From the IMG/VR virus record IMGVR_UViG_3300044844_000506, positions 1 through 64,000 of that record: 64,000 bases of DNA; one strand, 5' to 3'. Positions 18,587-52,849 of this stretch are shown here, one piece after another. The stretch is from a virus. The position numbers and the translations under genes are program-made. The notes beneath the pieces are model-generated. The model saw only the letters and a list, made by a program, of their open reading frames with translations. It searched no databases and was not told where the DNA came from. Every line of letters starts with the position of its first letter. The stretch's first letter is position 1.

Positions 18587-19411
18587 TCACAGGTTATTTT
18601 GTTCCATAATTTTTGAAATTGTACACAATTGATTTGAATTATTTAAATATTTTTTAGCTAAATCCGATCCATTAAACCAATGAATACCTATACAATCTTT
18701 ATTAATCTGAAAACTTTTATCTTCTAAAAATATTTTTTCAGTTTCATTCCACGCAAATGGGTAAATTAAATCATTATTTAAATTAACTATTTCCATGTTA
18801 GGGAAAAACTCTTTTACATTTTCCAAAGTAGGATATAATTTTAAAACTAGTTTTGTACCATATGCTTGATAATCGTTTATATCAGGCTGTTCTGCACAGG
18901 CGGAATATATTTTTTTATAAAATGCATTTCCTTTATTTGCACCAATAAATGCTATGTTGAAATAATCAGTATTAAATGTGATAAGTAATTTATCTTGTTT
19001 AACTGATTCAAATTTTTCTAAAATATTATTCAATGACCGTAAATAAAGAATATCAAAATCAGAGTATACTCCTCCCATATGATACAATATAAAATATCTA
19101 AAAATGTCAGATTTTTTAACTTCAGGCAAATCTGTTGAAAATTTAATACCAACACTAGAAATATCTTGAACTGATACACTTTTTAGATTAAATAGATTAG
19201 GGAAGTAATTTTCTCCGGTATAGTTAATTTTTTGTTCAGGGGTGGCCCATGTTTTTTTATTAGAATAATTAGAATCGAACCAAATTATAACTTCCCAATC
19301 AGGGTTATGTTTTAGAAATGATGTAACTGTTTTATAGTGTAATTTTGATAAATTATCATTTTTACCCCAGTATAAATGCAATTTTTTAGGTATATCATAT
19401 GAAGTTAACAT
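18587..19411 (-). CDS. DXD glycosyltransferase (GT32-like)
   Basis: IPKKLHLYW, SDIFRY..LY..GGVYSDFD, IHWFNG. Confidence 0.88.
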   Translation of the reverse strand: MLTSYDIPKKLHLYWGKNDNLSKLHYKTVTSFLKHNPDWEVIIWFDSNYSNKKTWATPEQKINYTGENYFPNLFNLKSVSVQDISSVGIKFSTDLPEVKKSDIFRYFILYHMGGVYSDFDILYLRSLNNILEKFESVKQDKLLITFNTDYFNIAFIGANKGNAFYKKIYSACAEQPDINDYQAYGTKLVLKLYPTLENVKEFFPNMEIVNLNNDLIYPFAWNETEKIFLEDKSFQINKDCIGIHWFNGSDLAKKYLNNSNQLCTISKIMEQNNL

Positions 19412-20501
19412 GAAGAGGATCCTTTTCTAACATATAATTTATGAATCTATTTTTATTATTAAACATACATCTTTCACACGAAGATGCTTTAAACTTTAAG
19501 TAATTCTTGACTTTCTCATCAGAAAACCAAAAATCTTTGAACGATTGATTTTTGATGGACCCCATCAATCCTAATTTATTATAAGCATTGTTACAGCAAG
19601 TATATACATTTTGATCTCCACCAATGTAAGTGTTTAGATGCATATACCCACAATACTCGTATTCAGGTCGTTCATCAATTAGATCTTGAACACGATCACC
19701 AAACAAATTAAAGACAGTAAACTTGCTAGTACTAAAATCTTGTTTTGCTTTAACAGCAAGCTCTCTTGCCACTGGATAAATTTGTTTGTGATATTCAAAA
19801 TCATCTGGTGTAAAAACTGCGCTTATTCTTATGTTATCTACTCCTAAGGTAGAAAATAATTTTGTGGCATCATAAATTTCTTTATAATTTTCTTTTGTGA
19901 CTACAAAACCTACCCCAACAATTAACTTACTTCTTGGACTAGATTTTTTAGCCGCAACAACTTTTTTTATGTTTTCTATAGCTCTATCAAAATAAGTTAT
20001 TGGAACTTCTCTCATTGAAGAGTATGTTTCTTTATTAGCCGCATCCATAGAAAATCTTACCCAAGAGCCTTGAGCTAGTATTTCTGGTACACCGTCTAAC
20101 ATTCTAGTACCATTAGTGACTAATGCTAAATCTAATCCAAGATCTAATGTTTTTTGAAATAGTTCCTTATGTTTAGTATGTACTGTTGGCTCACCTCCTC
20201 CAGTATACTGTATAGCTTTGACTCCCATCTCTTTACAATCGTTTAAAATTTCTAAACATTTTTCATAAGGTATCATTCTATTTGGATTATTGTTTACTAG
20301 CCCTGTAATAGGGTCTTTGGTTCCAAATAGCTGATTTGATGTATAATTTTCCATTCTGTATGCACAGAATGAACAGTTGTGATTACACAAATCAGATATG
20401 ATTAGTTGAACCTGAAGTGGAACTGGCTGACCACCAGAACGCATCTCATTTATCTTATCTTGGTGATGAACTATTTTATGCGGATTATAAGGATTACTCA
20501 T
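19395..20501 (-). CDS. Radical SAM / SPASM-twitch protein
   Basis: CNHNCSFC, GGGEPT, TNG, C-terminal C...NVYTCC...CERC. Confidence 0.92.
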   Translation of the reverse strand: MSNPYNPHKIVHHQDKINEMRSGGQPVPLQVQLIISDLCNHNCSFCAYRMENYTSNQLFGTKDPITGLVNNNPNRMIPYEKCLEILNDCKEMGVKAIQYTGGGEPTVHTKHKELFQKTLDLGLDLALVTNGTRMLDGVPEILAQGSWVRFSMDAANKETYSSMREVPITYFDRAIENIKKVVAAKKSSPRSKLIVGVGFVVTKENYKEIYDATKLFSTLGVDNIRISAVFTPDDFEYHKQIYPVARELAVKAKQDFSTSKFTVFNLFGDRVQDLIDERPEYEYCGYMHLNTYIGGDQNVYTCCNNAYNKLGLMGSIKNQSFKDFWFSDEKVKNYLKFKASSCERCMFNNKNRFINYMLEKDPLHVNFI

Positions 20502-20687
20502 ATTTGTTTACTTTATTAAAATGTTTTTAATTTTATTAAAATAATGATTTACGTTATCATATAGTAAGTGTTTAAATTTATCAAAACTTTCCATTTTTTT
20601 TATGTTTATACTCGTAATGTAGATTTTCTATACCTAAATACCCACTTATCCACTTAAATGAATTATAATTTGAACACATTAAAGTTA

Positions 20688-21287
20688 TCACTTACCCCTA
20701 CCGTTCCTGCCGTCTAATTTTGGTCTAACAGAATACAATAATTTTTCATACCACTTTATTTTATAGCCCATTTTCCCTAACAATTCCACATGATGAAAAT
20801 CTATGTAGTCAGAATTATTCCCTGATAATGCCTTAAAAAAAGGCAATACAAATAGTAAATGTGTTTTGTATGTAGGAACAGCTATATTTCCTAATGTTAT
20901 TCCTCTATTAGAATTTAAACATAATTCCAAACCATCATTATATTTTATTCCAGGTATCCAAACATCTATATCTGGTTCAGAAGAAATTTTTTTAATCATG
21001 TAATCTCCTGCTCCTTGGATAAACTCATCATCATCATCCAATAAACAAAAATACTCAGTATCGCAAGCGTATGCACCCATATTTATGGCAGCACTACCAT
21101 ATTTATCAAATTTTTGTCCTGTTTTCAACAATAGAACGTCTGATGGTATATCTCTTTTATCTAAATCTATAGCATCAGCAACTACTATTACTTTATTGAA
21201 TTCTTTTTTAGAAGATTCAATTGCATTCTTTAAAGTATTTCGTCCTATGGTTCTAATAATAACAGTTATTAGATTATTTTTTAACAT
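20688..21287 (-). CDS. Glycosyltransferase family 2-like
   Basis: ITVIIRTIGR, NMGA...LLDDDD. Confidence 0.75.
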   Translation of the reverse strand: MLKNNLITVIIRTIGRNTLKNAIESSKKEFNKVIVVADAIDLDKRDIPSDVLLLKTGQKFDKYGSAAINMGAYACDTEYFCLLDDDDEFIQGAGDYMIKKISSEPDIDVWIPGIKYNDGLELCLNSNRGITLGNIAVPTYKTHLLFVLPFFKALSGNNSDYIDFHHVELLGKMGYKIKWYEKLLYSVRPKLDGRNGRGK

Positions 21288-22507
21288 TTGTTTAATATGT
21301 ACTTATATAAGTTCAATCTATTATATACAACTTTATTTATATTAAACTTCTCTTCCGTAATTTTGTGCAGATTCTCACCCATCTCTCTCAAGAGATCAGG
21401 CTTCTTAATGCACTTCGTAAGAGTCTCAATCCATACGCTAGGCTTGGCAGACTTCGGTATAAGAAATCCCGTCTTACCATTGACGATGGTGTCCTCATAG
21501 CAGCCTACGTCAGAACAGATTAATGGTACTTTATATCTTCCAGCTTCAGCAACTTTGATATCGCTCTTACTGTCATTAAACGCATTCATTTGAAGCGGAG
21601 CAATTGCTGCATCCATATTAGCAAACATAACACCATATCTATCGGCAGGTAGAGCAGAGTTAATAGTATAATTCTTACCACCTCTAAACCCGCTACAAAT
21701 GATTCTTTCATAGTTCTTCCATACATCATGCTGCCATTTATCCTTCTCATCTTGAATTGGGGGTTTACCGTAGAAGTCCCATCTTACGTTATGGATTCCA
21801 ACCTTCTGATTAACTAGCCAAGGAATACCTGCAAACTCTTTAACATCTTCCTCATGGTGTATTCCTCCTGCCCAGCCTATCCTCACAAACTTATTCTTTG
21901 CTACTTGAGTTCTTGGTTGATTCCAAGCCTCTAGATTATAGTCAATAGAGTTTTTAACTACGGCTAAGGTGGTAGAGGTACTACAGAAACTAGCTATTCT
22001 TTCAGCGAACTTTCTTTGTGTAACAGTAACTAAATCAGAGTTATGATATACCCACTTAGTTACTTCAGATAGTCCACCTTCCTTATAGACTTTCTCTAGT
22101 CTATGACCTGCATACAATTCTGTGAGAAGGTCATCAGTATCAAAATGGAATAACTTCTTATGTTCTTTAGTTATTCCACAAACCCTTGCAAGGTAATTAA
22201 CTCCATAGTTAGTTATGTTATTTGTCCAGACAATATCAGCCCAGTCAAATAACTCTCTATTTATGTTTTCCTTGAATGGGTTACCATCCTTAGGTAATTC
22301 CCATCCAAGAGGATTATAGTCGTACTTGACTTCTACTACATTAGGGTATAATTCAAGTAACTTACGGGAAGGCATGATAATTCTATAATAACTGCACCCC
22401 CCATCATTCGGTATAAATGCAAGAATCCTAAGTTTTCTTCCCAACTTAGGAAACTCCGTTAATTTAGACCACTCTTCAGGACTTAATTCAGGTGATACAT
22501 TAGACAT
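21281..22507 (-). CDS. GT-B fold glycosyltransferase (GT4-like)
   Basis: GCSYYRI, DTDDLL, IGWAGG..H, IAPL...FNxxKSxIKxxEAG, SDVGCY. Confidence 0.88.
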   Translation of the reverse strand: MSNVSPELSPEEWSKLTEFPKLGRKLRILAFIPNDGGCSYYRIIMPSRKLLELYPNVVEVKYDYNPLGWELPKDGNPFKENINRELFDWADIVWTNNITNYGVNYLARVCGITKEHKKLFHFDTDDLLTELYAGHRLEKVYKEGGLSEVTKWVYHNSDLVTVTQRKFAERIASFCSTSTTLAVVKNSIDYNLEAWNQPRTQVAKNKFVRIGWAGGIHHEEDVKEFAGIPWLVNQKVGIHNVRWDFYGKPPIQDEKDKWQHDVWKNYERIICSGFRGGKNYTINSALPADRYGVMFANMDAAIAPLQMNAFNDSKSDIKVAEAGRYKVPLICSDVGCYEDTIVNGKTGFLIPKSAKPSVWIETLTKCIKKPDLLREMGENLHKITEEKFNINKVVYNRLNLYKYILNKC

Positions 22508-22548
22508 TTCATATCATATGTCGTATCACTTAAATCTGTATATTTATA

Positions 22549-22794
22549 TTAAAGATTATTATCTAGTTTCAGAACTTGCAACCAGTTATGCTTGGTCTTA
22601 AAATAAATTTCCATAGTGGTTGCACCACCCTTATCGTTCATCAAGTAAATATCTAATCCATAAAGATCTGTGTCATCCTTATAAGCGTAATAGCCTTTAA
22701 AATCAAGTTGATTAAATGTAAAAGCAACATACCCATCTATGTAAACCTTTACCCTTCCATTATACAACTTAAAAGAATACTTGTGGTTTTTCAT
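22549..22794 (-). CDS. Hypothetical protein
   Basis: ATGA overlap with rmlD. Confidence 0.6.
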   Translation of the reverse strand: MKNHKYSFKLYNGRVKVYIDGYVAFTFNQLDFKGYYAYKDDTDLYGLDIYLMNDKGGATTMEIYFKTKHNWLQVLKLDNNL

Positions 22795-23528
22795 ATAGAT
22801 TCAATCATGGAACAATCTGTTGGATACCTATAAGGTAATTTTACATCGTAAACATTAGATATTTCTACTTCTGGATATTCCTGTTTTGCTAAATCTAATA
22901 GTAGTTTACGTTCCGTGCCTACATTTATGATGCCTCTCATATCACGTTCAATGGCTTCCACAATCTTTTGAGCAATTACATCCATCCAGTCAGCACTTGT
23001 GTATACTGGATGATAAACTTTTTTATAAGCATTTGGACCCCATGTTCCACGGGGTTTCATAGCTGCTCGTATAATTAGATCTTTATTTTTATCGCAGAAC
23101 CACTCTCCCATGTACTTAGTTATACCATAAATAGATCTTGGTCCTGCCTGATCAACATTACTACCTACTGCATACCAACCTTTTGTTCCTGGATAAACAT
23201 AATCGCTGGAGATATAAACTACTTTAGCACCAATAAACTTAGAGGCTTCACAAACCATTTGATTACCTCTAGTATTTATTTTATATGCTTGGATTCTTCC
23301 AATAGAACTTTCTGCTCCAGCGACATCAGTATATGCTGCTAAGTTTATTACTAAGTCTGGTGCTACGTCACAAATCAATCTCCACACTTGACCAGTTGAG
23401 ATATCTACTTCTTCATGAGTTGGAGTAATAACATTAGCACCAGCTTTTTTTAAAAGAGGTACAAGTTCTTTTCCTAACCTACCAGACGCTCCAAATACAA
23501 CGACTTTCTTTTCCTTAAGATAACTCAT
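22791..23528 (-). CDS. rmlD: dTDP-4-dehydrorhamnose reductase-like SDR
   Basis: GASGRLG, NLAAYTDV..AE, ISSDYVY, YGITK. Confidence 0.85.
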   Translation of the reverse strand: MSYLKEKKVVVFGASGRLGKELVPLLKKAGANVITPTHEEVDISTGQVWRLICDVAPDLVINLAAYTDVAGAESSIGRIQAYKINTRGNQMVCEASKFIGAKVVYISSDYVYPGTKGWYAVGSNVDQAGPRSIYGITKYMGEWFCDKNKDLIIRAAMKPRGTWGPNAYKKVYHPVYTSADWMDVIAQKIVEAIERDMRGIINVGTERKLLLDLAKQEYPEVEISNVYDVKLPYRYPTDCSMIESI

Positions 23529-23535
23529 TACTACC

Positions 23536-24543
23536 TTAATTTAATTCATCATGCAAAGTTTGCAATTGACTATGCAAGAACTCAAATAACTTTAACGTCC
23601 AATAAGCGTTTTTGCCTTCCAAGACTCCAAGTTTAGTGGAATCCATCGTGTACAATTTATCATGTCCTAGACGATCTTTCACACGCTTTATCTTAATTTT
23701 ATTCCCAAGCAGTTCCCAAACAGAACTGACATAATTAACAATATCACAATTTCCAATAGGGTCTTGCGTTGATCCTATGTTTACAATGTGATTTTTTGCT
23801 TCACTATTCTTCATCAAAGAAAATATCATGCGAGCATTATCATCAACATAAATCCATTCACGACATTGAGTGCCATCACCGTAAACAGGTATGGGTTGAT
23901 CCTCTTTAATGCACTTAAGAATCTTGGGAATGAACTTCTCTGGATATTGGTGTGGACCAAAGTTATTACAGCTTCTTGTAATCAAATACTTCAGACCGTA
24001 AGTTCTTCCACACGCTATGACTAGATTGTCTGCTGATGCTTTTGATGCAGCATAATAAGAACTAGGCTTTTGCAGCGTCTGCTCATCAGCCATCTGAATA
24101 CCCTCTTCATAGCGATCTCCATAAACTTCATCGGTGGAGATTTGGACAAATCGCTTCAACTCCTTAGATTGACGAACAATCTCAAGAAGGTTAAACACAC
24201 CCATTACATTAGCTCGCATAAAAGGAGAACCATCTGTAATGGAATTATCAACATGGGTTTCAGCGGCAAAGTTTACGACATACTCAGACTTCAAAAGACA
24301 GTTATTTGTCTTAGAGTTAATATTGGTGTCAGCAATATCAACACCATCGTAGAACTTAACTCGCTTCTTCATAGAAGAATCGAGCCAATCAAATCTCTGC
24401 TTTATTAGATTACTAGAAACATAAGTAAGAATGTCTATTACAGCCACATCATACTTAGTATTCTCAAGTATGTATTTTACGAATCTAGATCCAATAAATC
24501 CTCGACCACCAGTTACAGTAATTAGTTTAGTTTTTTTAATCAT
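23536..24543 (-). CDS. rmlB: dTDP-glucose 4,6-dehydratase
   Basis: TGGRGFIGS, FAAETHVDNSI, ISTDEVYG, YAASKA, NNFGPHQYPEKFIP, DRLGHD. Confidence 0.93.
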   Translation of the reverse strand: MIKKTKLITVTGGRGFIGSRFVKYILENTKYDVAVIDILTYVSSNLIKQRFDWLDSSMKKRVKFYDGVDIADTNINSKTNNCLLKSEYVVNFAAETHVDNSITDGSPFMRANVMGVFNLLEIVRQSKELKRFVQISTDEVYGDRYEEGIQMADEQTLQKPSSYYAASKASADNLVIACGRTYGLKYLITRSCNNFGPHQYPEKFIPKILKCIKEDQPIPVYGDGTQCREWIYVDDNARMIFSLMKNSEAKNHIVNIGSTQDPIGNCDIVNYVSSVWELLGNKIKIKRVKDRLGHDKLYTMDSTKLGVLEGKNAYWTLKLFEFLHSQLQTLHDELN

Positions 24544-26691: not shown

Positions 26692-27483
26692 TTAAGCCTC
26701 TAAACGCTTTTTAAACTCTTCCTCACTAGCTACTTCACTAGTGACTTTTGATTCTCCTTCTTCCTTAGATGGAATAGAACCAGTAGCCATTAATGTTTGA
26801 GCTAGGTTCTTAACTTCCTCATAGTTCTCCTTCTTAATAAGAGCCTTGAGGTCGTGTAGAGAATCCATATACTTAGCAATAGCTGACTTACTAGATCCAG
26901 CAGGAGTTGAATTCATCTTAGGACGGGATTGTTCGTAATTACGATACTCACCCTTCATTGTCACGATAAAGTTGAAGTCATGTCCCTTATCTAGGCTTGT
27001 AATGTCTCCAAGACCTTCAATACCTAGATCATCATCACCAAGCATATAAGACATAATTGTCTTAAATTGATCTTTACCAACGGAAAGAATCTTTACAGTA
27101 TCAGTCTTTCGATCTACTACATTCATGTAGATTCTTTCCTTTGCACGAATTGAAAGAGATCCCTTGCCATACTTATCTGCTAGTGTAGTATCACCTAGCT
27201 TGTGACGCTTCCACATTTCGTAATAAGCATCACACAGGGGGCAGGGTTCTCCATGCATCTTAAGGCAGTGAATGTTTCTTGCCTTACCATTCTGGTCATG
27301 GATCTTATGTACCTTGTTCTCTACATAAAACCATTTTCCCTCCTCCTTGGCAGGGAGAATTCTAACGACGTTAGAACCCATCTCCATACTCATAAAGTTC
27401 TTTAGGAAGTCCTCAGAGTTGGCTGCGGGCTTTTCCTTTGTAAGTTCAGTATATTTCTTCTTAAGTTCGTCTAAGTTTACCAT
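26692..27483 (-). CDS. gp32-like single-stranded DNA-binding protein
   Basis: VRILP, H...C......CPLC, GHDF, acidic tail; synteny with UvsY and helicase. Confidence 0.85.
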   Translation of the reverse strand: MVNLDELKKKYTELTKEKPAANSEDFLKNFMSMEMGSNVVRILPAKEEGKWFYVENKVHKIHDQNGKARNIHCLKMHGEPCPLCDAYYEMWKRHKLGDTTLADKYGKGSLSIRAKERIYMNVVDRKTDTVKILSVGKDQFKTIMSYMLGDDDLGIEGLGDITSLDKGHDFNFIVTMKGEYRNYEQSRPKMNSTPAGSSKSAIAKYMDSLHDLKALIKKENYEEVKNLAQTLMATGSIPSKEEGESKVTSEVASEEEFKKRLEA

Positions 27484-28215: not shown

Positions 28216-29517
28216 TTATTCCTCTGAGATTAGTTCACCCTCGTAATCCTTCATTTCGAGAGTTCCGTAATTAATACCAATTGGGAAAGTAAATCGAGTC
28301 TTGCTGTTTCTAGACTTCATTACATAGACCCTCATTACTCCCTGATCATATTCCTGTTCAGTTTGGTTTAATGAGATAGCTAAGTCACAGGTACGAATCT
28401 TACCATATGAATCGGCTAATTCTGTATCAGTGATTAGAGTAGACTTAGCACCTTCTCTATTTGGTTGACTAGCAGTCCAAATGATACAATTATACTCTAC
28501 ACCAAGACCTCTAAGTTCTTGAGCGATTCTCTCTTGAGCCTGATACTCTGCTAGACCTTCTGTAGTTGGGCGAAGGAGTTCTAGATAGTCAATTATGATA
28601 ATATCTGGAGTAAACTCTTCGTAATTATGAATCTGATTAATTAAAGCCCTAATAGTATTTGCGTTGGCTCTTCCTGTTGGGAACTCTTTAATAACCAGTC
28701 TACTCTCAGGAAATGCTTCCTTGAAAGTAGCAAGTCTCTTCTTCAAAAGATCCTGATTGTCCTTCAGCTTCTCTTGTGGAATTAAACTCATTACTGAGTC
28801 AAATCTTTGAGCGATTCTATCTTCACTCATCTCTAGAGAGATATAAAGAACCTTACGATTTTCCGTAAGTGCCTTTACTGCCTGATTGACTAGGTAAATA
28901 GACTTTCCTCTACCCGATCCAGCAACAACCATGCACAACTCTTTTCTTGCTGGACCACCCTCCATAGTCTTGTTCAGTTCATTAAAGACTGTGGAAAAAC
29001 GATTGGTGCTGTTAGTATCAGTTAATCTTACCCAACGCTCTGTAACATCGGTAAAGTAGTTTTGACCTAGGTTAAGATCTCTACTGATAGTTAGAGCCTT
29101 CTTTACTTCTAACTCAACATCACCAAATCTATCATCCTTGATTAACTGAATGCTCTTTGAGATAGCTAACTTAATAGCCTCCTTCTTAGCAAAGCGTTCA
29201 ATTAGGTCTAGATAGTAGGTTCTATTCTCTAGAGATGTCTTGTCTAGATTATTAATCCATTCAAGTTCATCCTCATAATCACTAATCTTAGTCTTGTCTG
29301 TAAGGTGAGTCTTTATCTGCTCAACAATTACATGATCATTGGGTAGTACCTTATACTTATCGTAGTGAGATACAACAACATCAAAAATTAAACGATGTGA
29401 GTCAAACTCAAAATATTCAGACTTTACAAGATTAATAATCTGTAGATAGAAATCCTTATCAGACTTGAGTAGATAAATGATTCCTCTCTGAATAGAGTCA
29501 ACGAATTTATATGCCAT
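28216..29517 (-). CDS. DnaB/gp41-like replicative helicase
   Basis: AGSGRGKS, ISLEMSE, IKEFPT, IIDYLEL, WTASQPNR, KSRN. Confidence 0.93.
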   Translation of the reverse strand: MAYKFVDSIQRGIIYLLKSDKDFYLQIINLVKSEYFEFDSHRLIFDVVVSHYDKYKVLPNDHVIVEQIKTHLTDKTKISDYEDELEWINNLDKTSLENRTYYLDLIERFAKKEAIKLAISKSIQLIKDDRFGDVELEVKKALTISRDLNLGQNYFTDVTERWVRLTDTNSTNRFSTVFNELNKTMEGGPARKELCMVVAGSGRGKSIYLVNQAVKALTENRKVLYISLEMSEDRIAQRFDSVMSLIPQEKLKDNQDLLKKRLATFKEAFPESRLVIKEFPTGRANANTIRALINQIHNYEEFTPDIIIIDYLELLRPTTEGLAEYQAQERIAQELRGLGVEYNCIIWTASQPNREGAKSTLITDTELADSYGKIRTCDLAISLNQTEQEYDQGVMRVYVMKSRNSKTRFTFPIGINYGTLEMKDYEGELISEE

Positions 29518-35011: not shown

Positions 35012-35709
35012 AGTTCTATACCTAATCTATCTAGGTCTGTATTAATTTGATCTTTAATTAGCTTCGCATACATCTGAATCTCTTTCTGTGCATCTGGCTT
35101 AAGTCTCTGATTAAGGAAATGCAGAACTGCCTGTAGAGATACAGTCCAATAAGATTCAGAGTAGATATTTTGTGGAAGAACCAATCGGGCTTGTTCTCTA
35201 GCTACACCAGAGTCAATGAATGCTTTATATGTTCTATATGCCTCATCGCACGCTAATTTAATTCTATACTGTAAAACAACCTGATCTAATTCTGGATTAG
35301 AATCTGAAGATTGTTTATTGTGTTTGGTATTAGATCTAAATTCGTTAGGATAGAAAAACTCTGGTTCCAATTCTGTGTATCTACCAGACACTTCATTCCA
35401 TGAGCAACCTTTATCTGAATCATAAAGTTCGTTACTCATCCATGTAGAACCTATTTGATATTTCTTCCACTGATTAAATACAAAAATAGGTGCCTTGATA
35501 TGGAAGGTATAGTAGGTATGCCTGAATGGGCTGGTATGCTCATTATCCCATAAAAACTTTACTAACTTCTCATCCTTTTCATCAAATGCTTCTTTACGTT
35601 TGCCATGAGAGATTCTAGCTGCATTGACTACCTTTAATGCAGTATCGTGCTGCATTTTATCAACTAGATCAACAAAGCCAACATAATCATGAATAAATAA
35701 ACGAGTCAC
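35008..35709 (-). CDS. thyX: Flavin-dependent thymidylate synthase (atypical motif)
   Basis: NAARIS, HTSPF, APIFV, NEVSGRY, AREQARLVLP, AQKEI. Confidence 0.88.
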   Translation of the reverse strand: MTRLFIHDYVGFVDLVDKMQHDTALKVVNAARISHGKRKEAFDEKDEKLVKFLWDNEHTSPFRHTYYTFHIKAPIFVFNQWKKYQIGSTWMSNELYDSDKGCSWNEVSGRYTELEPEFFYPNEFRSNTKHNKQSSDSNPELDQVVLQYRIKLACDEAYRTYKAFIDSGVAREQARLVLPQNIYSESYWTVSLQAVLHFLNQRLKPDAQKEIQMYAKLIKDQINTDLDRLGIEL

Positions 35710-35984
35710 TCTGAAATTCCTTTATTACAGTCGCATTTGTTTGGGATGTATCCATAATTACTTATTGCATTACTGTCATATCCACAAGTAAAGCAATTCA
35801 TATGAAGTACAACACCAACTACTCTAATTTTATTAGTATTCTTAACTAATCTTGAAACAGATTCAGCTACTAGTAGTAGTGGTGAATCAGTATTATCATC
35901 CCAATATGTTGTTGTAGCTGGGATGCCCTCATTATCTATCCAATCAATTTCTACTTTCCATCTTTTACCGCTTGGCATAATCAC
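35706..35984 (-). CDS. Hypothetical protein
   Basis: 92-aa ORF overlapping both neighbours. Confidence 0.55.
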   Translation of the reverse strand: MIMPSGKRWKVEIDWIDNEGIPATTTYWDDNTDSPLLLVAESVSRLVKNTNKIRVVGVVLHMNCFTCGYDSNAISNYGYIPNKCDCNKGISE

Positions 35985-37105
35985 CTGTTAAGTACTTCCT
36001 CTCTGTTAATAATAGAGCCTGAGTTGCTAAATTTTACTTCTGTCTTAGCAGCAAAGTTGTTTCCAATACAAACTTCAATCTCAAGTGGAACCTTAAAGTT
36101 AAATCCTAAGGACTTTAGGAGTGGGTAGTTCCTGAGTTTATTGTACATGATTTGTAGTGTCTCTTCAGTATCATTCTTGTTTGAGATAACTTCAATAGAG
36201 TCATGTACAGTACCACAAACGTAAGAATCCAATCCACGATATTTTAACTCCCTATCTAGGTCAATTAGTCCGTAACAAACAATATCTGATGCTGAACTTT
36301 GAATGCCAAAGTTAATACCTTGACGATAACATCCATCTCTAACTTGCTGAACTGGTGAATCTACGTCTGGTAGATTTCTACGTCTTCCGAATAGAGATGT
36401 ACAGTACTTATTTTCTGTGATGGTGTTTTTTACCTCATCCATCCACTCGAAGACTCTGGGATATACTTCTTGGAACTTAGCGATTGTTCTTTCAGCTACT
36501 TCCATAGATACGTTAGCTGTTTTACTAAGTTTCCATGCACCACCACCGTATACTACAAGGAAGGATACTGACTTCGCAATCTGTCTCTCGTCATCTGTAA
36601 CTTTGCTTATTTCTTTCTCGTAGATAAGTGATGCTGTATATCTGTGAAGGTCTGCTCCTGAGTTAAAGGCTTTGATCATGTTAGTCTCATTAGCAATATG
36701 AGCTAACACTCTAAGTTCCATAGCTTTGAAGTCAGCAGTGATGAAATCATAGCCGACAGGAGAGATACAGCACTCTCGGATACTATCTACTTTTTCTCTG
36801 GGTAAGGTATGAAAGGATAATCCGAGGGGGAAATCCTTACCGTTCTTGATAGCCTTGTAGGCACCACAAGACAATCTTCCAGTAATTGTGCCTTCAGGAC
36901 GATAGTCAAAGTAAATACGGTCATTACCTGTATTGCTAAGAGCCTTCTTGGCTCCTGTAACATAGGTAGAATAAAGTTTCTCCTTTGCGCGATAAGTTTT
37001 GAGAGATGTGAAGAACTCAAGAGCTTGCTCCAACTTAGCTGTTGGTAAAGTCTCGATGTGCATCTTTGCAATATCTTCATCAGTTAACTTTTTCTTGTAG
37101 GCCAT
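35981..37105 (-). CDS. polA: Family A DNA polymerase, palm/fingers fragment (part 3)
   Basis: TITGRLSC; motif A ADFKAMELRVLAH; motif B RQIAKSVSFLVVYG; FGRRR; IQSSASD; motif C VHDS. Confidence 0.92.
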   Translation of the reverse strand: MAYKKKLTDEDIAKMHIETLPTAKLEQALEFFTSLKTYRAKEKLYSTYVTGAKKALSNTGNDRIYFDYRPEGTITGRLSCGAYKAIKNGKDFPLGLSFHTLPREKVDSIRECCISPVGYDFITADFKAMELRVLAHIANETNMIKAFNSGADLHRYTASLIYEKEISKVTDDERQIAKSVSFLVVYGGGAWKLSKTANVSMEVAERTIAKFQEVYPRVFEWMDEVKNTITENKYCTSLFGRRRNLPDVDSPVQQVRDGCYRQGINFGIQSSASDIVCYGLIDLDRELKYRGLDSYVCGTVHDSIEVISNKNDTEETLQIMYNKLRNYPLLKSLGFNFKVPLEIEVCIGNNFAAKTEVKFSNSGSIINREEVLNR

Positions 37106-37658
37106 TAAAAATCTCAGCAATTAGAGAGCGTACCGTAACTTCAAATTCCTTCTCTGTCCCATTATTATAGATATGAATGGCCCCTTCTTTCCATAAATCC
37201 GCATTTTGGAATGCTGTTTCACTAGGGCTATCCCATATCTTGCGATTATAGCCTCTCTTTAGTAATTCTTTTTCCTGAACATCAATTTCAATTATGTATA
37301 CAGGTCTATCCTTGTAGTGATTCTTTACAACTCTAAGTTCATTGGGGAATCTACAATCACTAAAGATAATAACTTCATCATTCTCTGTATAGTAATTCTT
37401 GCTAATAGCCATGTCAACCCATACATCAGGGTTTAAGGATCTAGCAAGCATACCACCAAAAATAATAAACTCTCGATACTTTTCTTTATCTCTTTCTAAC
37501 TCTTCTAATGTTAGACCTAAATTAATAGCTGCCATCTTTTTAAGTTCATCAGCAAAAGCTATACGACGAATCTTAGAGTATTCTTTTCTGGCATACTTTA
37601 TAAAGGTGTCTTTACCAGACTTACTTCTTCCAATTAATAAAATTACTGGCATCTTCAT
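37080..37658 (-). CDS. dNMP kinase-like P-loop kinase
   Basis: GRSKSGKDT, FADELK, KEKYR, SDCRFPNE, SET. Confidence 0.85.
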   Translation of the reverse strand: MKMPVILLIGRSKSGKDTFIKYARKEYSKIRRIAFADELKKMAAINLGLTLEELERDKEKYREFIIFGGMLARSLNPDVWVDMAISKNYYTENDEVIIFSDCRFPNELRVVKNHYKDRPVYIIEIDVQEKELLKRGYNRKIWDSPSETAFQNADLWKEGAIHIYNNGTEKEFEVTVRSLIAEIFNGLQEKVN

Positions 37659-38140
37659 TTGCTTGATCTCTTTTCTAGTTCTGCTTCAATTAAGTTTTCT
37701 AAAGTCTCCATAGCATTCTTATCAACACTAGGAGATCCCTTGTCGGTTTTAGTAGGAGGGTACAATCCTAAACCTTCAGAATCATGATAGAATATCTTAA
37801 TAAGATCCTTATTAGATGCAATATTATATTCTTCTTTTACAAAAGGGAACGATAGAACCTTGGACTTAGCCTCATCAACTTTACTCTTAACTCTTGAATC
37901 TAGATTGCCTAAGGTTCCATTATCAATCAGCATACCTCTATTTTCAATATCAGCTAATACTGGGATTAAAGGTGATAAAAGATTCTTGTAATGATCTGTT
38001 AGGTCCAACTTCTGAAGCTCAGAATACATCTTATGAAATAGCATTAAAGTATAATAGCTATCCATAGCATTACCTTTAGCCATCTCAGAAAGGGGCATTG
38101 ACTCCCAATCCTGCTTCTTTCCATCTTTTACTGTTAACAT
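37655..38140 (-). CDS. Family A DNA polymerase, ExoIII + thumb fragment (part 2)
   Basis: NAMDSYYT, LADIENRGMLID, NIASNKDL, KTDKGSPSVD. Confidence 0.85.
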   Translation of the reverse strand: MLTVKDGKKQDWESMPLSEMAKGNAMDSYYTLMLFHKMYSELQKLDLTDHYKNLLSPLIPVLADIENRGMLIDNGTLGNLDSRVKSKVDEAKSKVLSFPFVKEEYNIASNKDLIKIFYHDSEGLGLYPPTKTDKGSPSVDKNAMETLENLIEAELEKRSSK

Positions 38141-39159
38141 TATAAAACCTCAAGGTTTTCTGGGAAGTATCTCTTAACTAAGTTAATTAACTTAGTATTC
38201 TGGTTCTCATCAATTAGGTGAGCCATGCCAGCGGTGTCCCAGATATTCTCCAATAATATGCCCTCACGGTCTAAAAATTTGTAATCGAACTTGGCATTCT
38301 GTAGAACTTTAATGTTATTTGGGTTGCCAGTCACAGAGTTAATTAAAGCATATAGATCTGTCTTGTCTTTGTTCAAGAAAGGAGACTCTCTATGATAGAT
38401 AGGAATAACAACACTAGCTACCCCTTCCGCATCCTTGTAAGAGATTGAGATAGTAAGAATCTTATCTGTTAAGAAGTTTAATCCATTAGTCTCAATGTCA
38501 ACAGAGACTGCTTCATCGGTTGAGTCCAGAGAGTTAGTAGAAATAATCTGTTTAAATTCTTGGAGATCTTTTACAACCGAGTATCTTAACTTTAGTGGAG
38601 TAATACTCTTATGAATAATCTTATTCAGAGCTAAAGATACATCGCTGATAATAACATCTCTGTACTTAGGCTCAATAAATAAGATTGATAGGCTATAAGT
38701 TGGAATTACAGGAATCTCATTATAATTAAATTCTGAGCCGTGATTCTTCTCAATACCAGACTTCTTCATTAGCATCTTAAATGCTAAGTTTCCCATAGGA
38801 ATGATCAGCTTGGGCTTTACAGCCTCTACAGTCTCTTCCAAGTACTTTCTACATACTTTCATGCTCTCAGCATCCATGTGCTTATCCTGCACTTGTGGAC
38901 ACTTTACGGAGGCAGAGATTGTATACTTTATATTTCCTAGTAGAGGCCCGATCACATCATTAAATAATGCCTCTGTTTGCTCAGATAAAACTAAACCCTC
39001 AAACCCATTAAATTGAAATGAGTCTACAAGAAATAGTATATCCGACTGACTTAGGTCTACATAATCCTTATAGCAGTGAAACGGTTTATTAATAGAAAGA
39101 ATCTTGCAACCTTGACATTCAGGGTTCTCGTTTTTCTTGTATAAATCTAAAAGACTCAT
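38140..39159 (-). CDS. Family A DNA polymerase N-terminal fragment: UDG-like domain + ExoI/ExoII (part 1)
   Basis: CxxC..VKC...C..YL...KPKLIIxMG..A...PTY, then DIETNG, QNAKFD, WDT...LIDEN. Confidence 0.85.
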   Translation of the reverse strand: MSLLDLYKKNENPECQGCKILSINKPFHCYKDYVDLSQSDILFLVDSFQFNGFEGLVLSEQTEALFNDVIGPLLGNIKYTISASVKCPQVQDKHMDAESMKVCRKYLEETVEAVKPKLIIPMGNLAFKMLMKKSGIEKNHGSEFNYNEIPVIPTYSLSILFIEPKYRDVIISDVSLALNKIIHKSITPLKLRYSVVKDLQEFKQIISTNSLDSTDEAVSVDIETNGLNFLTDKILTISISYKDAEGVASVVIPIYHRESPFLNKDKTDLYALINSVTGNPNNIKVLQNAKFDYKFLDREGILLENIWDTAGMAHLIDENQNTKLINLVKRYFPENLEVL

Positions 39160-39173
39160 AAATATAATAAAGT

Positions 39174-39527
39174 ATGGCGCAGTATATAGACAATAAAAGG
39201 TTTGAGTTTTTAGTTAGTTCTTACATATATGAAAGAACTGACAAAATCGAGGCAGAGCTTATAGAAAATCTGGACAAGCTGATAGATAATATCTTCTTGT
39301 CCTTTAATTTTAAGATAGACCACGAAGATGCGAAGCAAGATTGTTATTTGTTAATCTTCCGCGTAATGCGGAACTTTAAACCAGAAAACGGTAGTGCGTT
39401 TAATTACTTCACTACCGTTATCGTAAACAATCTAAGGTTACTGTACACTAAGAATAAAATCTATGCACAGAAACTAGAAAACTACATGAATATAAAATCC
39501 AACGATAAAGATTTACTTACAAGTTGA
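39174..39527 (+). CDS. gp55-like late sigma factor
   Basis: YIDNK, D..QD, NFKPE..SAFNYFT; region 2 only. Confidence 0.8.
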   Translation: MAQYIDNKRFEFLVSSYIYERTDKIEAELIENLDKLIDNIFLSFNFKIDHEDAKQDCYLLIFRVMRNFKPENGSAFNYFTTVIVNNLRLLYTKNKIYAQKLENYMNIKSNDKDLLTS

Positions 39528-39845
39528 ATTCTTAATCTTAGGACTTACGAAGCTGCGCCTAATCAAATGAGGAATATCGTAAGTTCTATATTGTCTGCTG
39601 TCGCCCCAATAAGTCACTAAGGAAGGCGACCTATTGATTTTAAATCTATTGCTAAGTTCTGGCAGATCAAATAGATTAACCTCGTAAATCTGATCGTTGG
39701 TAGGACTTGAATTTAACTGCTCAAGAAGAGCGGCGCAATTATTGTCCTGCCAAGGGCTGAAGAAATAGAAGGTCTTTGAATCCGAAGTTTCTTCTGCTTC
39801 CTTGAGAAGAGAATAAAATTCAGATACAGTTGTAATTTTCTTCAT
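39513..39845 (-). CDS. Thioredoxin-fold protein
   Basis: FFSPW, EVN....ELSNRFKI.RSPSL; no CxxC. Confidence 0.6.
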   Translation of the reverse strand: MKKITTVSEFYSLLKEAEETSDSKTFYFFSPWQDNNCAALLEQLNSSPTNDQIYEVNLFDLPELSNRFKINRSPSLVTYWGDSRQYRTYDIPHLIRRSFVSPKIKNSTCK

Positions 39846-40289: not shown

Positions 40290-40814
40290 ATGGAAGATCG
40301 AGTATCAGCAGAGGATTTGTTGAAGTTGAAGAAAAAGAAACGGGTCAATAGCCGTACAAAAGGTAATGCGTTTGAACGAAAGGTTGCATCAATACTAAAT
40401 GAGTACCATGAGACTTCAGACTTTTGCAGAACTCCAGGTTCAGGTGCATTCGCTACAACACACAAACTACCGAAGCATCTTCAAGTTAAAGGAGATTTAA
40501 TTACTCCAACAAACTATCCTTTTGTAATAGAGTGTAAGAAAGGTTATAAGTTCTCTATATCTGATTGTTTAAATCTTAAATCAGATTTTAGAGAAATTAT
40601 AAACAAGATAGAAAAAGAAGCTAAAGACAGTAATAAACTTCCATTACTAATCTTTCAACAAGATAGACAATCTGTATACTGTTTAACTACATTAAATAAC
40701 TACAGTATAAAGATAGACCTATCTACTGTAGATTCTTATCTTTTACTAGATAATAAATATCTAGTAATTCCGTTATCATACCTTCTAAAAACTCTTCCGA
40801 AATACTTTCATTAG
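40290..40814 (+). CDS. Holliday junction resolvase (Hjc-like PD-(D/E)XK)
   Basis: NSRTKGNAFER, RTPGSGA, GDL, IECK. Confidence 0.85.
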   Translation: MEDRVSAEDLLKLKKKKRVNSRTKGNAFERKVASILNEYHETSDFCRTPGSGAFATTHKLPKHLQVKGDLITPTNYPFVIECKKGYKFSISDCLNLKSDFREIINKIEKEAKDSNKLPLLIFQQDRQSVYCLTTLNNYSIKIDLSTVDSYLLLDNKYLVIPLSYLLKTLPKYFH

Positions 40815-43251
40815 TAGGAGCTACTGGATTTAGTCTGTGTCTTCTAATTGCATCTCTTCTTAGATAAATAGTATTTAATAAAGAAGATGAATCGTATTTA
40901 CGAGTTGTAACTGTAAACCAACAATTAATAACATTACCATATTGTTTTCCTGTACTAATGTGAATACCTTTTTTATCTGATGATATCTTGTATTCACCAT
41001 TTATAAATTTAGACAGTTCTTCTCGTAGAGCTTTGTTGTTGTTTATAATGTAATTATTACCAGTATTAAAGTATCTACACTCGGTAAGCATTTCTTTTTC
41101 ACTGGCAGCTTGACTATAGATCATTGTAGATACATACTTTCTCCAGTTAATAGCATCTTCTGTTAGCTTACCTTTTTTGTCTACTTTATTGCACTCAGTT
41201 TTAAGTTTCGACAATATAATTGCTCTCTTGATTCTGTTTGAGATAGCCCTCTTTACTGTAGCATTACTCAAGTCATCTGGTTTTATACCTTCAATTTTTG
41301 CTAGATCATCATAATTGCTATTCAACTTAAGTTTTTCCAAGAATCCATTTATAGTATTTATATTAACTTCTTCTCTACTATAACCAGGAACTATCTTATT
41401 TGTAAATAAATTTTCAACTCCTAACATTATAGTATCTACTTCTCTAACTTTAGATACAGCTATATTATGATCAAGTTGAAATGTTTCTAATGCCTTTATA
41501 GTATGCGGGTGATTTTCTTGTAATTTTCTGTGGAATGTTCCCATACCTCTTTCAGCTAATTTTGCTTTACCTTCTATAGTATAAGTCTTTAAACCTATAG
41601 GTAAAGCAGCTTTAAAATCACCATCACCGACATCTATTAGATTTCCTCTAAATGATTGAGCTTCTACTGGATTCATACCATACTTCTCTGTTAATAGAGA
41701 TTGTACATCGTCTTCTGATGAATAGAATTCAATCATGTCTGCATTAAAACCAAAGTCTTCTTTGTTACCTGTATGTTGAATTGCTTCAGGTTTTCGCAAG
41801 AATAATGAATCTTTCTCAAATCTAATTAATTTAGGTAAGATCTTATCTACAGTTGGAATATCTACTTCTTTTAAAATATTCTTACTTAGGTTTTTCTTTG
41901 GAGATTTCTCAGATCTAATGGCTCTGATATTATCAACTAATTGTTTTTTATCTATTACAAATCTATCAGCAGCAGCTTCACCTCTTTCAAAAGGTATTGC
42001 AATTTTGTATGCATCAATTAGTCCTTGTTCAAATTTGTCAGAAGCATCCTTTAGAGTAACTGCGGCAGATTTATAATCATTCTTGTACGCATGATCAATT
42101 ACTATTCTATAGTTCTCTGCTGAATTTCCTCTAACACTATTAAACTCTGCTGTCTCTCTTTCAGATATATTTTTAATTCTACTAATTCTAATTCCCTTAC
42201 TACCTCTAGTCATCTTCTGTTGTAGATCCCACTGATTTATTAGTCTATTTGTTTTACTAATAACGTGCTCTAAGAAAGGGAACAAATGTACATCTTGTCT
42301 ATAAGATCCTTCAACATTTGGTGGTGTAGTTCTTCCAACTAAACAAACTCCATCTTCTAATGCTGTATCTAAAATCCAGATACCATCCCCATCAACCTTC
42401 ATAGAGTTTTCTAAAAATTTCAAATCATCAGCAGTAAACTTACTGTTGTATAGTTTAGTTACGCAATCAGTAAATCTTTCAAACTTCTCTGCAACAATTT
42501 CTTTTTGTCTAGTGCTAAGTTGTTTTTGAACAGTTACCTTAGTCCCATCTTCTTTTCCTAAAATTTGAACAGAGATTGAATTTGCCATTTTATTTTTAAG
42601 ACTTAATGGATGATCCCCGTCAATATGATCCCTCAACATACTATAGTCTTCTTTACCACCAGGACCAATTGTTGAAATTGTTTTTTTGTATATTGATGGA
42701 TAAGTTAACATCAATGAATAGTTTTGAGCTAAATTGTATAGATTAGTTGAAGACTTAGATATTTTTTCGTGGAATAAATAAGATACAGGATTAACAGGCA
42801 AATTAAATAATGGATCTATTTGTTGACCCATCATTTCTTCTTCTGGTTGTTCTTCTGTTACTGACTGTTTTAGATCTTTACGAGTCTTGTCTAGACTTGC
42901 AGAAAACACTTTATAAGCAGGATGACTCCTAAGAGGAGTAAAGTTAAGATCCGTTACAGGCAAAGCAGCAGAGCCTCCTTGCTTTACTACGACTTGACCT
43001 GATCTCTTACCTTCTCTTGCAACGAATACTTGAGTTCCAGGATCTTTACTTTCTGGAACATCTACAACATAGTTATCTTGGTCTTTTAAAGATACCGCTC
43101 TGTTTATGTATTGTAAAGCAAGCTCATGTGCAGCATCACTTACAGTACTCTTTTTAGGTGCTGAAGTTCCGTCTTTAGCTTCATTTAATGGATTAAATGA
43201 TCTTTTTTTAATCTTACTGTATGATTGTAATAAATTGGTGTAATAATCCAT
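40723..43251 (-). CDS. Large protein with possible PD-(D/E)XK nuclease motifs
   Basis: 842 aa; RGNSAE ... NADMI ... IGLK pattern; follows the tail tube gene. Confidence 0.5.
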   Translation of the reverse strand: MDYYTNLLQSYSKIKKRSFNPLNEAKDGTSAPKKSTVSDAAHELALQYINRAVSLKDQDNYVVDVPESKDPGTQVFVAREGKRSGQVVVKQGGSAALPVTDLNFTPLRSHPAYKVFSASLDKTRKDLKQSVTEEQPEEEMMGQQIDPLFNLPVNPVSYLFHEKISKSSTNLYNLAQNYSLMLTYPSIYKKTISTIGPGGKEDYSMLRDHIDGDHPLSLKNKMANSISVQILGKEDGTKVTVQKQLSTRQKEIVAEKFERFTDCVTKLYNSKFTADDLKFLENSMKVDGDGIWILDTALEDGVCLVGRTTPPNVEGSYRQDVHLFPFLEHVISKTNRLINQWDLQQKMTRGSKGIRISRIKNISERETAEFNSVRGNSAENYRIVIDHAYKNDYKSAAVTLKDASDKFEQGLIDAYKIAIPFERGEAAADRFVIDKKQLVDNIRAIRSEKSPKKNLSKNILKEVDIPTVDKILPKLIRFEKDSLFLRKPEAIQHTGNKEDFGFNADMIEFYSSEDDVQSLLTEKYGMNPVEAQSFRGNLIDVGDGDFKAALPIGLKTYTIEGKAKLAERGMGTFHRKLQENHPHTIKALETFQLDHNIAVSKVREVDTIMLGVENLFTNKIVPGYSREEVNINTINGFLEKLKLNSNYDDLAKIEGIKPDDLSNATVKRAISNRIKRAIILSKLKTECNKVDKKGKLTEDAINWRKYVSTMIYSQAASEKEMLTECRYFNTGNNYIINNNKALREELSKFINGEYKISSDKKGIHISTGKQYGNVINCWFTVTTRKYDSSSLLNTIYLRRDAIRRHRLNPVAPTNESISEEFLEGMITELLDIYYLVKDKNLQ

Positions 43252-51826: not shown

Positions 51827-52849
51827 TTAAGAGTCTTCAAATTCACTAAGATGACCTCTTAACTGTTGTAAACTTCGATGTAACGATTGCCTAACTGTAT
51901 CAGGATTACTATTTAAAACTTTTGCTATTTGTATTGTATCATACCCTTTTAAATAATATAATTTAACTATGTTTTGTTGTGTTGGATTTAGTCTTGAGAT
52001 AGCTTTACCCAATTTAGCTCTAACTTCTGATCCAGCTATTCCAGAAGATGGATCTTCATATTCTTTAGGTCCAGAAATAGTAGATCCAAATTCTTTTTCA
52101 GTACCTGCTATAGGAGCATTTAATGAGCCTCCCTCTTTAGATCTAGCTCTTTTTTCTTGTGTATGATATCGTAAAGCATCTCCTACTCTAGCGTTTATAA
52201 TTTTAGATAAAAATCTAGGAAAAGATTCAACATTAAAATCTAGTTTTTCTAAATTTTGAAACCCTTCTTCAAATGCTTGTTGAACTATATCTTCAGCAGA
52301 TACCTTTGATTGAAGACTACCTAACCTACTTCTAGCAAATGCAATTAACTTTTTACTATGTTTATTAAATAGTTTATTAGTTGAATCTTCATCGCCTAAG
52401 CTGTGAGCCTGAAGTAATTCATGATCTTCTTTGTCATGAGGAACATTTCTTTGTGCCGCTTTAGCAGCTTCTTTATCAGCTATTGCTTTTTTAACTACCT
52501 TTTCTGGAATGTCTTCAGATGGTGTTTCTGATTTAGGTTTTACTTTTTTAGGTGGAAGTTCTAATGGTACTTTCCAGTAGTCATCACTTTTATCTTTTTG
52601 ATCTTCTGATTTCGGCTCTTTTTGTTCTGGCTTCTTAATTACTGGGGTAGCTGTAGGTTTTTCAACTTTAGGAGTAACTTTAGGTTCTTTAGTCTTTGGA
52701 GTAGGTTTTTTAGAAACAATCTTAGGTTTTTCTTTTTTAGGTAGAGGTTCTATTGGTTCTTCAATATCTTCTCCCTCATCTTCTTCAAGAAGAAACTCTT
52801 GAATTAAATGAATTGAATTTTCGTCTAAGATATTTTTAAAACTAATCAT
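51827..52849 (-). CDS. ECF sigma-70 factor with an N-terminal acidic leader and P/K/E-rich linker
   Basis: Region 2: LL.A...GDE.....LF......L..FAR.RL....K.SAEDIVQ..F...F..FL..I....V.D..R.H...KR. Region 4: AISRL...QQ.IV.LYY..G....QIA.VL....TVR..L.R.L.QLR. Confidence 0.88.
   Translation of the reverse strand: MISFKNILDENSIHLIQEFLLEEDEGEDIEEPIEPLPKKEKPKIVSKKPTPKTKEPKVTPKVEKPTATPVIKKPEQKEPKSEDQKDKSDDYWKVPLELPPKKVKPKSETPSEDIPEKVVKKAIADKEAAKAAQRNVPHDKEDHELLQAHSLGDEDSTNKLFNKHSKKLIAFARSRLGSLQSKVSAEDIVQQAFEEGFQNLEKLDFNVESFPRFLSKIINARVGDALRYHTQEKRARSKEGGSLNAPIAGTEKEFGSTISGPKEYEDPSSGIAGSEVRAKLGKAISRLNPTQQNIVKLYYLKGYDTIQIAKVLNSNPDTVRQSLHRSLQQLRGHLSEFEDS

Follow-up and report, generated by a model that had tools for sequence, protein, structure and literature searches.

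The complete genome of IMG/VR virus record IMGVR_UViG_3300044844_000506 encodes a family A DNA polymerase (PolA) that is divided among three open reading frames (ORFs), here named P1, P2 and P3, with a kinase gene lying between the second and the third. The window analysed comprises the first 64 kb (positions 1 to 64,000) of this genome, which is recorded in IMG/VR as complete, with 111,612 bp and direct terminal repeats, and its carrier is an uncultured marine T4-like phage. In textbooks, family A polymerases are enzymes of a single chain. We propose, with a probability of about 0.85, that P1, P2 and P3 constitute a functional three-subunit replicase produced from translationally coupled cistrons, and that this enzyme is the only polymerase of the phage.

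The ORF listing places the four genes of the block on the minus strand, at the coordinates given in the first-pass annotation of this DNA, and the overlaps that join them were read directly from the sequence:

38140-39159, minus strand: P1, 339 amino acids (aa), uracil-DNA glycosylase (UDG)-like domain and exonuclease motifs ExoI and ExoII; Pfam UDG and DNA_pol_A_exo1, phrog_17 positions 478-784.
37655-38140, minus strand: P2, 161 aa, ExoIII helix and first half of the thumb; phrog_17 positions 793-927.
37080-37658, minus strand: P-loop deoxynucleoside monophosphate (dNMP)-kinase-like gene, 192 aa; phrog_139 and PF04275.
35981-37105, minus strand: P3, 374 aa, remainder of the thumb, palm and fingers; PF00476, phrog_17 positions 927-1238.
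38138-38142, minus strand: TAATG stop/start overlap of P1 and P2.
37655-37658, minus strand: ATGA start/stop overlap of P2 and the kinase gene.
37080-37105, minus strand: overlap of 26 nucleotides (nt) between the 3′ end of the kinase gene and the start of P3, supported also by the alignment of homologues.

Taken in order, the matches of P1, P2 and P3 tile the phrog_17 profile colinearly, as one family A polymerase. In Pfam, P1 presents a UDG domain at residues 78-161 (PF03167, 33.9 bits) and DNA_pol_A_exo1 at residues 195-332, and its profile also matches the UDG structure 4zbx (E 5e-15). P2 has an additional weak match to the N-terminal part of DNA_pol_A. P3 matches positions 60-380 of PF00476 with 240.8 bits (cut-off 34.3) and carries motifs A, B and C, which classifies it as a family A DNA polymerase; its ORF extends to a TTG at 37120, and the ATG at 37105 fits the 26 aligned homologues better. 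These profile matches bear out the first-pass annotation, which had read the block as a split family A polymerase with a kinase between its second and third parts and with overlapping stop/start pairs as junctions. Between P3 and the ThyX gene there is a Cys-rich ORF of 92 aa (C-F-T-C ... C-D-C; 35706-35984, minus strand), with overlapping stop/start codons at both ends and no match in Pfam or PHROG.

Terminator-like sites are absent from the coding strand inside the four-gene block, and promoter-like matches are at chance level. This is consistent with a single transcript and with stop/start coupling of translation, in which the TAATG would probably serve for termination-reinitiation between P1 and P2.

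The positions of the two cuts in the polymerase fold were mapped by profile alignment to solved structures, in which the Klenow numbering corresponds to the chain index plus 323. The P1 family covers Klenow 329-452, with about 20 more residues up to the end of P1; the P2 family covers 482-617, with G23 placed on Y497 and D27 on D501; and P3 residues 35-346 cover 627-919, the Bacillus fragment being aligned as well. Cut 1 falls at about Klenow 472-475, between ExoII (D424) and ExoIII (D501). Cut 2 falls at about Klenow 618-626, in the thumb just before helix I, where about 12 extra residues of P2 and about 34 of P3 stand for some nine residues of Klenow. The thumb portion of P2 corresponds to Klenow ~520-617, and P3 is made of an N-terminal extension helix, thumb helix I, palm and fingers. 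From the letters alone, one break had been assigned to the proofreading domain and the other to the thumb, and both the Klenow alignment and the structural models agree with this.

Two relatives were modelled with AlphaFold2 (AF2). In the relative L076, P1 and P2 are in frame and separated by TAA GAC ATG, and the stop codon was read through for modelling. The checked alignment A6 was used, alignments A4 and A5 having been dropped as misaligned; MAFFT misplaced the exonuclease half of P1 on P2, the ExoI of P1 (D-I-E-T-x-G-L) resembling a stretch of P2 (D-I-E-N-R-G-M). In this model (mean predicted local distance difference test score, pLDDT, 89; predicted template modelling score, pTM, 0.77), residues 196-411, that is, the last 143 of P1 and the first ~70 of P2, form one DEDD domain, which matches NrnC 7mpl (Z 21.4; root-mean-square deviation 2.6 Å over 194 residues), RNase D 1yt3 (Z 21.2) and Klenow 324-581 (Z 20.7). 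The DEDD fold is thus predicted to be complete only across P1 and P2. The second model is of P0200, a metagenomic protein in which P2 and P3 are fused (pLDDT 89.6). In it, junction 2 is a loop (residues 169-182) that links the C-terminal helix of P2 to the N-terminal helix of P3, which runs into the long helix I. The models place the cuts within the fold; the assembly of separate chains lies beyond them.

The catalytic residues are distributed over the three chains. The DEDDy motifs comprise ExoI (D221/E223) and ExoII (N288/F291/D292) on P1 and ExoIII (D27) on P2. Scored over 27-31 diverse sequences, D221, E223, F291 and D292 are invariant and N288 is kept in at least 90%; G23, N24 and D27 are invariant on P2. 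On P3, D125/E130 of motif A, R174/K178/F182/Y186 of motif B and H301/D302 of motif C are invariant in 27 homologues. The catalytic aspartates are intact, and the deviating motifs quoted in the first-pass annotation (DFKAMELR, SVSFLVVYG and VHDS) are indeed present.

Relatives were collected by an alignment-based search of IMG/VR, which yielded at least 552 related loci, and 80 of these were examined. In every sufficiently flanked locus, P1, P2 and P3 are separate genes in the same order, with breakpoints that coincide residue by residue. Among the 80 loci listed, 59 distinct ones have all three genes, and both breakpoints are identical in 59/59, a comparison that had been suggested together with the original description of the block. 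The diverged loci are 29-44% identical to the window in P1 and 42-51% in P3. The pieces are also frequent as stand-alone proteins. A search with P3 that covered 5.8 billion proteins found hundreds of homologues of 355-394 aa with 44-94% identity, on contigs that reach 127 kb and come in part from Tara Oceans samples; an index-free phmmer search with P2 against 1.84 billion cluster representatives found ~85 clusters (at 50% identity) of 157-181 aa that match from residue 1. With P3, no protein of 656 aa or more exceeds 36% identity, and the nearest unsplit protein to P2 is 34% identical.

The ratio of nonsynonymous to synonymous substitution (omega) is 0.03-0.14 for each of P1, P2 and P3 where computable; between locus pairs, synonymous divergence (dS) is saturated and nonsynonymous divergence (dN) is 0.09-0.46. 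All three genes are under strong purifying selection. These values bear directly on the alternative that the split is an artefact of assembly or sequencing, such as an indel between P1 and P2, or a pseudogene in a phage that uses another polymerase. Some weight is lent to this alternative by the metagenomic origin of the assembled window and by one relative, L060, in which P2 is frameshifted. Against it stand the recurrence of the same breakpoints in 59 independent diverged loci, the low omega together with the invariant catalytic residues, and the searches for a replacement: a single PolA match, with no second PolA and no PolB, was found in the complete 111,612-bp genome, and neither was found in the genomes of five relatives. 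Decay or artefact is effectively refuted, and with it the three objections raised in the first-pass annotation (an assembly indel joining parts 1 and 2, decay in relatives, an intact polA or polB elsewhere). In L060 itself, residues 1-87 and 108-139 of P2 lie in different frames (L060:6560-6915), and the gap between P1 and P2 contains 1.5 kb of GC-richer ORFs; this broken P2 could be a sequencing error or a decaying copy.

The form of the junctions varies among relatives. P1 and P2 share a 1-nt stop/start overlap (TAATG, TGATG or TAGTG) in 40/59 triples; in the others there is a 7-nt overlap (1/59), a 3-nt gap (2/59) or an insert of 184-1735 nt (16/59). P2 and P3 overlap by 1-38 nt in 55/59 triples, the commonest form being GTGGGTAA. 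The inserts at the first junction consist of unrelated genes, such as an HNH endonuclease in L016 (PF13392, E 5e-10), a family 2 glycosyltransferase (GT2) in L081 and a membrane-like ORF of 91 aa in L029 and L046. In five loci the gap is occupied by a conserved lipoprotein-like ORF of 164-207 aa on the opposite strand:

L009:5960-6454, minus strand of the locus: opposite-strand gap ORF.
L010:5985-6539, minus strand of the locus: opposite-strand gap ORF.
L026:5913-6536, minus strand of the locus: opposite-strand gap ORF.
L070:5969-6469, minus strand of the locus: opposite-strand gap ORF.
L074:5969-6469, minus strand of the locus: opposite-strand gap ORF.

These opposite-strand ORFs present a signal L-x-S-C-S-T-I-K-H together with a hydrophobic segment, and have no Pfam match.

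A sliding ribosome could not cross the inserted and opposite-strand genes, so that P2 must be initiated independently. The same arrangement weighs on the possibility that recoding, through a -1 frameshift at the TAATG, bypassing or read-through, yields a single-chain polymerase. In the window, as in the 40 relatives mentioned above, the two genes overlap by 1 nt and P2 occupies the -1 frame relative to P1, which speaks for recoding. However, the relatives do not share a slippery heptamer ahead of the junction, nor is the frame relation constant: P1 and P2 are in the same frame in 7/59 triples, of which two (L076-type, with the 3-nt gap) have no insert. P2 opens with a start codon in every case, and its product begins with M-L-(T) without exception. 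At junction 2, recoding would have to bypass the entire 192-aa kinase gene. Frameshifting was likewise dismissed for a two-gene split in T7-like phages (Czernecki et al. 2023, PMC10201439). Recoding into one chain is, on these grounds, very improbable as the normal route to the enzyme.

Joining after transcription or translation was also considered, by group I introns, with the kinase as an intron ORF, or by split inteins. Introns occur in the polA genes of SPO1-like and Twort-like phages, and the HNH gene at junction 1 of L016 indicates that homing endonucleases reach this site. Nevertheless, junction 1 of the window has zero intervening nucleotides, a scan of 35500-39600 against Rfam (E<=1) found no intron or ribozyme, and no Hint or intein domain was found with Pfam, in agreement with the absence of intron and intein features noted from the sequence at first. 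The end of P1 and the start of P2 adjoin on Klenow, which leaves no space for intein halves; the extra residues at junction 2 are too few for a split intein and are modelled as two helices; and the kinase gene overlaps the coding sequence of its neighbours. With no Hint domain, no Rfam match and no intervening sequence, the block is not an intein- or intron-interrupted polymerase gene, and this route has a next to negligible probability.

A slightly less remote, still quite improbable alternative is that each piece has a function of its own: P1 would be a stand-alone exonuclease or a repair protein of UDG-like type, P3 a polymerase devoid of proofreading, and P2 dispensable. P3 alone carries every polymerase motif, and PolAs that lack an exonuclease exist, Taq being an example. 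Separate action is opposed by the way in which the cuts divide the domains: the final third of the DEDD fold and the fourth catalytic carboxylate are located on P2 and missing from P1, and P3 has only half a thumb. P2 is as strongly conserved as P1 and P3 and is always encoded between them. In addition, PolAs structurally need the exonuclease domain for stability (Czernecki et al. 2023, PMC10201439).

We therefore return to the three-subunit replicase, which the first-pass annotation had likewise proposed as a heterotrimeric PolA. In this proposal, P1, P2 and P3 would be co-transcribed and translationally coupled, and would then assemble non-covalently into one enzyme. P1 would supply the UDG-like iron-sulphur domain and the carboxylates of ExoI and ExoII; P2, the ExoIII aspartate that completes the DEDD fold and the first half of the thumb; and P3, the remaining thumb, the palm and the fingers. 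An ancestral single-chain UDG-PolA would have undergone fission inside the exonuclease domain and later at the thumb, and the three-piece form would have become fixed in a large clade of marine far-T4-like myoviruses. Both junctions would then have become slots for unrelated genes, the second being occupied here by the dNMP-kinase-like gene, expressed alongside the polymerase.

Some observations weigh against this proposal. The association of the chains and the activity of the enzyme are deduced from sequences and models, and the AF2 models are of relatives whose chains were artificially or naturally joined; moreover, AF2 tends to return known folds whether the chain is broken or intact. A minor frameshift-fused P1-P2 product at the TAATG of the window is compatible with the sequence. 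The active sites are also unusual. In the split clade, an invariant Gly-Asn stands at the place of the ExoIII tyrosine (Klenow Y497), the window reading G-N-A-M-D at 38060-38075 (P2 residues 23-27), while the unsplit UDG-PolAs P0208 and P0272 keep the tyrosine. Motif C reads HDS instead of HDE, as it also does in the unsplit P0272 and P0304, and E305, two residues past motif C, is invariant on P3. Given the Gly-Asn in ExoIII and the HDS of motif C, proofreading or catalysis could depart from that of a textbook PolA.

The UDG-like domain of P1 has its own peculiarities. The four cysteines that bind the 4Fe-4S cluster in family 4 UDGs (C15, C18, C87 and C103) are invariant, but throughout the clade L-S-D-S stands where motif A would have GEAPG. 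At least 90% of relatives retain motif B (H-P, in F-H-P-Y), and the window differs from them:

38650-38700, minus strand: altered UDG motif B, P1 residues ~153-160, reading P-T-Y-S-L-S, with T-Y in place of H-P.

The domain matches family 4 uracil-DNA glycosylases in fold, profile and cysteines and deviates from them in motifs A and B, so that it falls outside the family as defined. With both motifs degenerate, UDG activity is improbable, and the domain is better described as UDG-like, probably not an active UDG here. The lineage of the window seems to be one step further in the inactivation of the UDG pocket.

The origin of the split was examined with a quick IQ-TREE tree of the polymerase domain (49 rows, with support given only by the Shimodaira-Hasegawa-like approximate likelihood ratio test, SH-aLRT). 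All the split forms compose one clade (SH-aLRT 95) beside the unsplit UDG-PolAs. Two-piece forms, with P1 separate and P2-P3 fused (P0213, P0216 and P0221), are basal in this clade, and the three-piece forms together with P0200 are nested in it (SH-aLRT 98). The fused forms surfaced in the P2 search, which also returned P0208, an unsplit UDG-PolA of 807 aa with 34% identity. The four P2-P3 proteins have 525-563 aa and start with M-L-T, as P2 does; P0213, P0216 and P0221 also share the ExoIII G-N/C-A-x-D and differ from the three-piece forms by the lack of the second cut. P0200 (563 aa) has both the P2 tail and the full N-terminal extension of P3, joined by ~10 residues, and for this reason it looks like a secondary re-fusion, or alternatively a frameshifted contig. 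Basal two-piece and nested three-piece forms fit two successive fissions, of the exonuclease first and of the thumb second; we infer this order with reserve, since the branching around P0200 is a polytomy and the two-piece forms come without their genomic neighbourhood.

On the tree, the unsplit proteins closest to the split clade are the single-chain UDG-PolAs, known in phages from the N4-like cluster 17 and from SPO1, SP-10 and SP-15 (Czernecki et al. 2023, PMC10201439), to which Pseudomonas phage SM1 gp037 (968 aa) and the metagenomic P0208, P0272 and P0304 can be added as examples. They have the same domain order (family-4-UDG-like, 3′-5′ exonuclease, polymerase), P0272 and P0304 share the HDS motif C with the window, and the N4-like enzymes have a degenerate UDG motif A, as in the split clade. 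They differ in being one polypeptide instead of three, and are at most 36% identical to P3. The window polymerase is thus related by descent to the SPO1/N4-type enzymes and keeps their domain order, but on three chains, which sets it apart from that type.

Natural fission of a phage PolA gene is itself a known event. The first exonuclease/polymerase split into two genes was described in S-SBP1-like T7-like cyanophages (Czernecki et al. 2023, NAR, PMC10201439), and the OM43 phages MEP401 and MEP402 also have a two-gene PolA (PMC10580990). In these systems, as in the present one, non-covalent reassembly is presumed and frameshifting is dismissed. The S-SBP1-like gene was split once, between whole exonuclease and polymerase domains, and belongs to the T7-like cluster 5, without a UDG domain; the window polymerase has two cuts, through the DEDD fold and the thumb, which give three chains with an active site predicted to extend across two of them. 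The cuts at about Klenow 472-475 and about 618-626, the UDG-like domain and the tree position it with the UDG-PolAs and outside the S-SBP1-like T7 type. The principle of a phage PolA split into genes presumed to reassemble was therefore published in 2023. No publication on a three-gene PolA or on a cut through the DEDD fold was found, in a literature of incomplete coverage, and the three-chain architecture, the shared active site, the thumb cut, the size of the clade and the cargo-slot junctions are absent from the literature found. The publication on Caulobacter phage Kuura makes no mention of a split.

Split family B polymerases (PolB) are also known, in gp43A/gp43B of T4-like Aeromonas phage and in archaeal PolB split genes. 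Their pieces reassemble, and their split sites are linked to the insertion of mobile genes. They belong to another polymerase family and are split at other positions than in the present case.

The gene inserted at junction 2 encodes a product that matches the phrog_139 dNMP kinases over residues 1-183 (E 6e-31) and PF04275 with 45.8 bits (cut-off 33.8), with a P-loop G-x4-G-K-D at residues 9-17; by its P-loop fold and profile match, it belongs to the PHROG 139 phage dNMP kinases. Among the 80 loci listed, a kinase gene between P2 and P3 is found only in L002, L003, L004 and L007, whose P3 is ~50% identical to that of the window and which have the same ATGA overlap. The kinase is absent from the genomes of four other relatives, which are 82-100% complete. 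As it is restricted to the nearest relatives of the window, the kinase is a late, lineage-specific insertion into a pre-existing junction and not the cause of the split. It is cargo and not a part of the polymerase, a role as subunit being without support.

A further reading is that the split is adaptive and not a neutral accident, with P2 as an exchangeable bridge, assembly tuning fidelity or processivity, and the junctions maintained as cargo slots. We regard this as doubtful. If it were true, docking of P2 would complete the proofreading site and close the thumb; the stoichiometry or assembly of the pieces could tune fidelity or processivity during infection; and the kinase would be supplied at the same time as the replicase and might even be bound to it as a fourth component, channelling dNTP precursors.

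Whichever the cause of the split, the three-subunit replicase would mean that an apparently abundant clade of marine myoviruses (at least 552 IMG/VR matches and ~85 P2 clusters at 50% identity) has its only identifiable polymerase on three chains, with a proofreading active site spanning P1 and P2 and a thumb spanning P2 and P3. A T4-type replication module would be running on a PolA and not on gp43. The DEDD fold would tolerate fission, and the two breakpoints would offer natural, evolution-tested split points for the engineering of PolA. The clade would also provide a worked case of stepwise fission, from one to two to three pieces, with junctions turned into cargo slots. For marker-gene surveys and annotation pipelines, such polymerases will be read as truncated or exonuclease-less.

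The genome context is a T4-like set and agrees with the gp32, gp41 and UvsX that the first-pass annotation had named as working with the polymerase; PHROG matches locate two of them:

28216-29517, minus strand: gp41/DnaB-like replicative helicase, phrog_19 (E 5e-92).
26692-27483, minus strand: gp32-like single-strand DNA-binding protein, phrog_1192 (E 6e-32).

The gp41/DnaB-like helicase is a probable replisome partner of the polymerase. The window also encodes UvsX, gp46/47-like SbcCD, a tail sheath, a prohead protease, a class I ribonucleotide reductase (RNR) and ThyX. The gp23-like capsid protein has Rhodothermus phage RM378 among its best cultured matches (34.5% identity over 73% of the query), and the capsid proteins of five relatives with genomes of 92-130 kb are 50-60% identical to that of the window. 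A blastn search of the 5-kb region against cultured phages gave no match, and in tblastn searches of INPHARED with P1, P2, P3 and P0216 no cultured phage exceeded ~35% identity. The carriers make up one coherent clade of uncultured, marine, far-T4-like myoviruses, in which a PolA replaces gp43.

Other genes of the window have no direct relation to the split. An ORF of 842 aa (40723-43251, minus strand), just upstream of the tail sheath gene, has no PHROG match, and its 3′ end overlaps by ~90 nt a plus-strand ORF of 174 aa (40290-40814). In the replication region, at 19395-24543 on the minus strand, there are a radical S-adenosylmethionine (SAM) gene, a glycosyltransferase gene and two nucleotide-sugar epimerase-like genes; this cluster may be a sugar or DNA-modification module, and as such may be relevant to a UDG-like polymerase. 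A sigma-factor-like gene (51827-52849, minus strand; phrog_1740, E 3e-19) is flanked by the prohead protease gene and the head genes.

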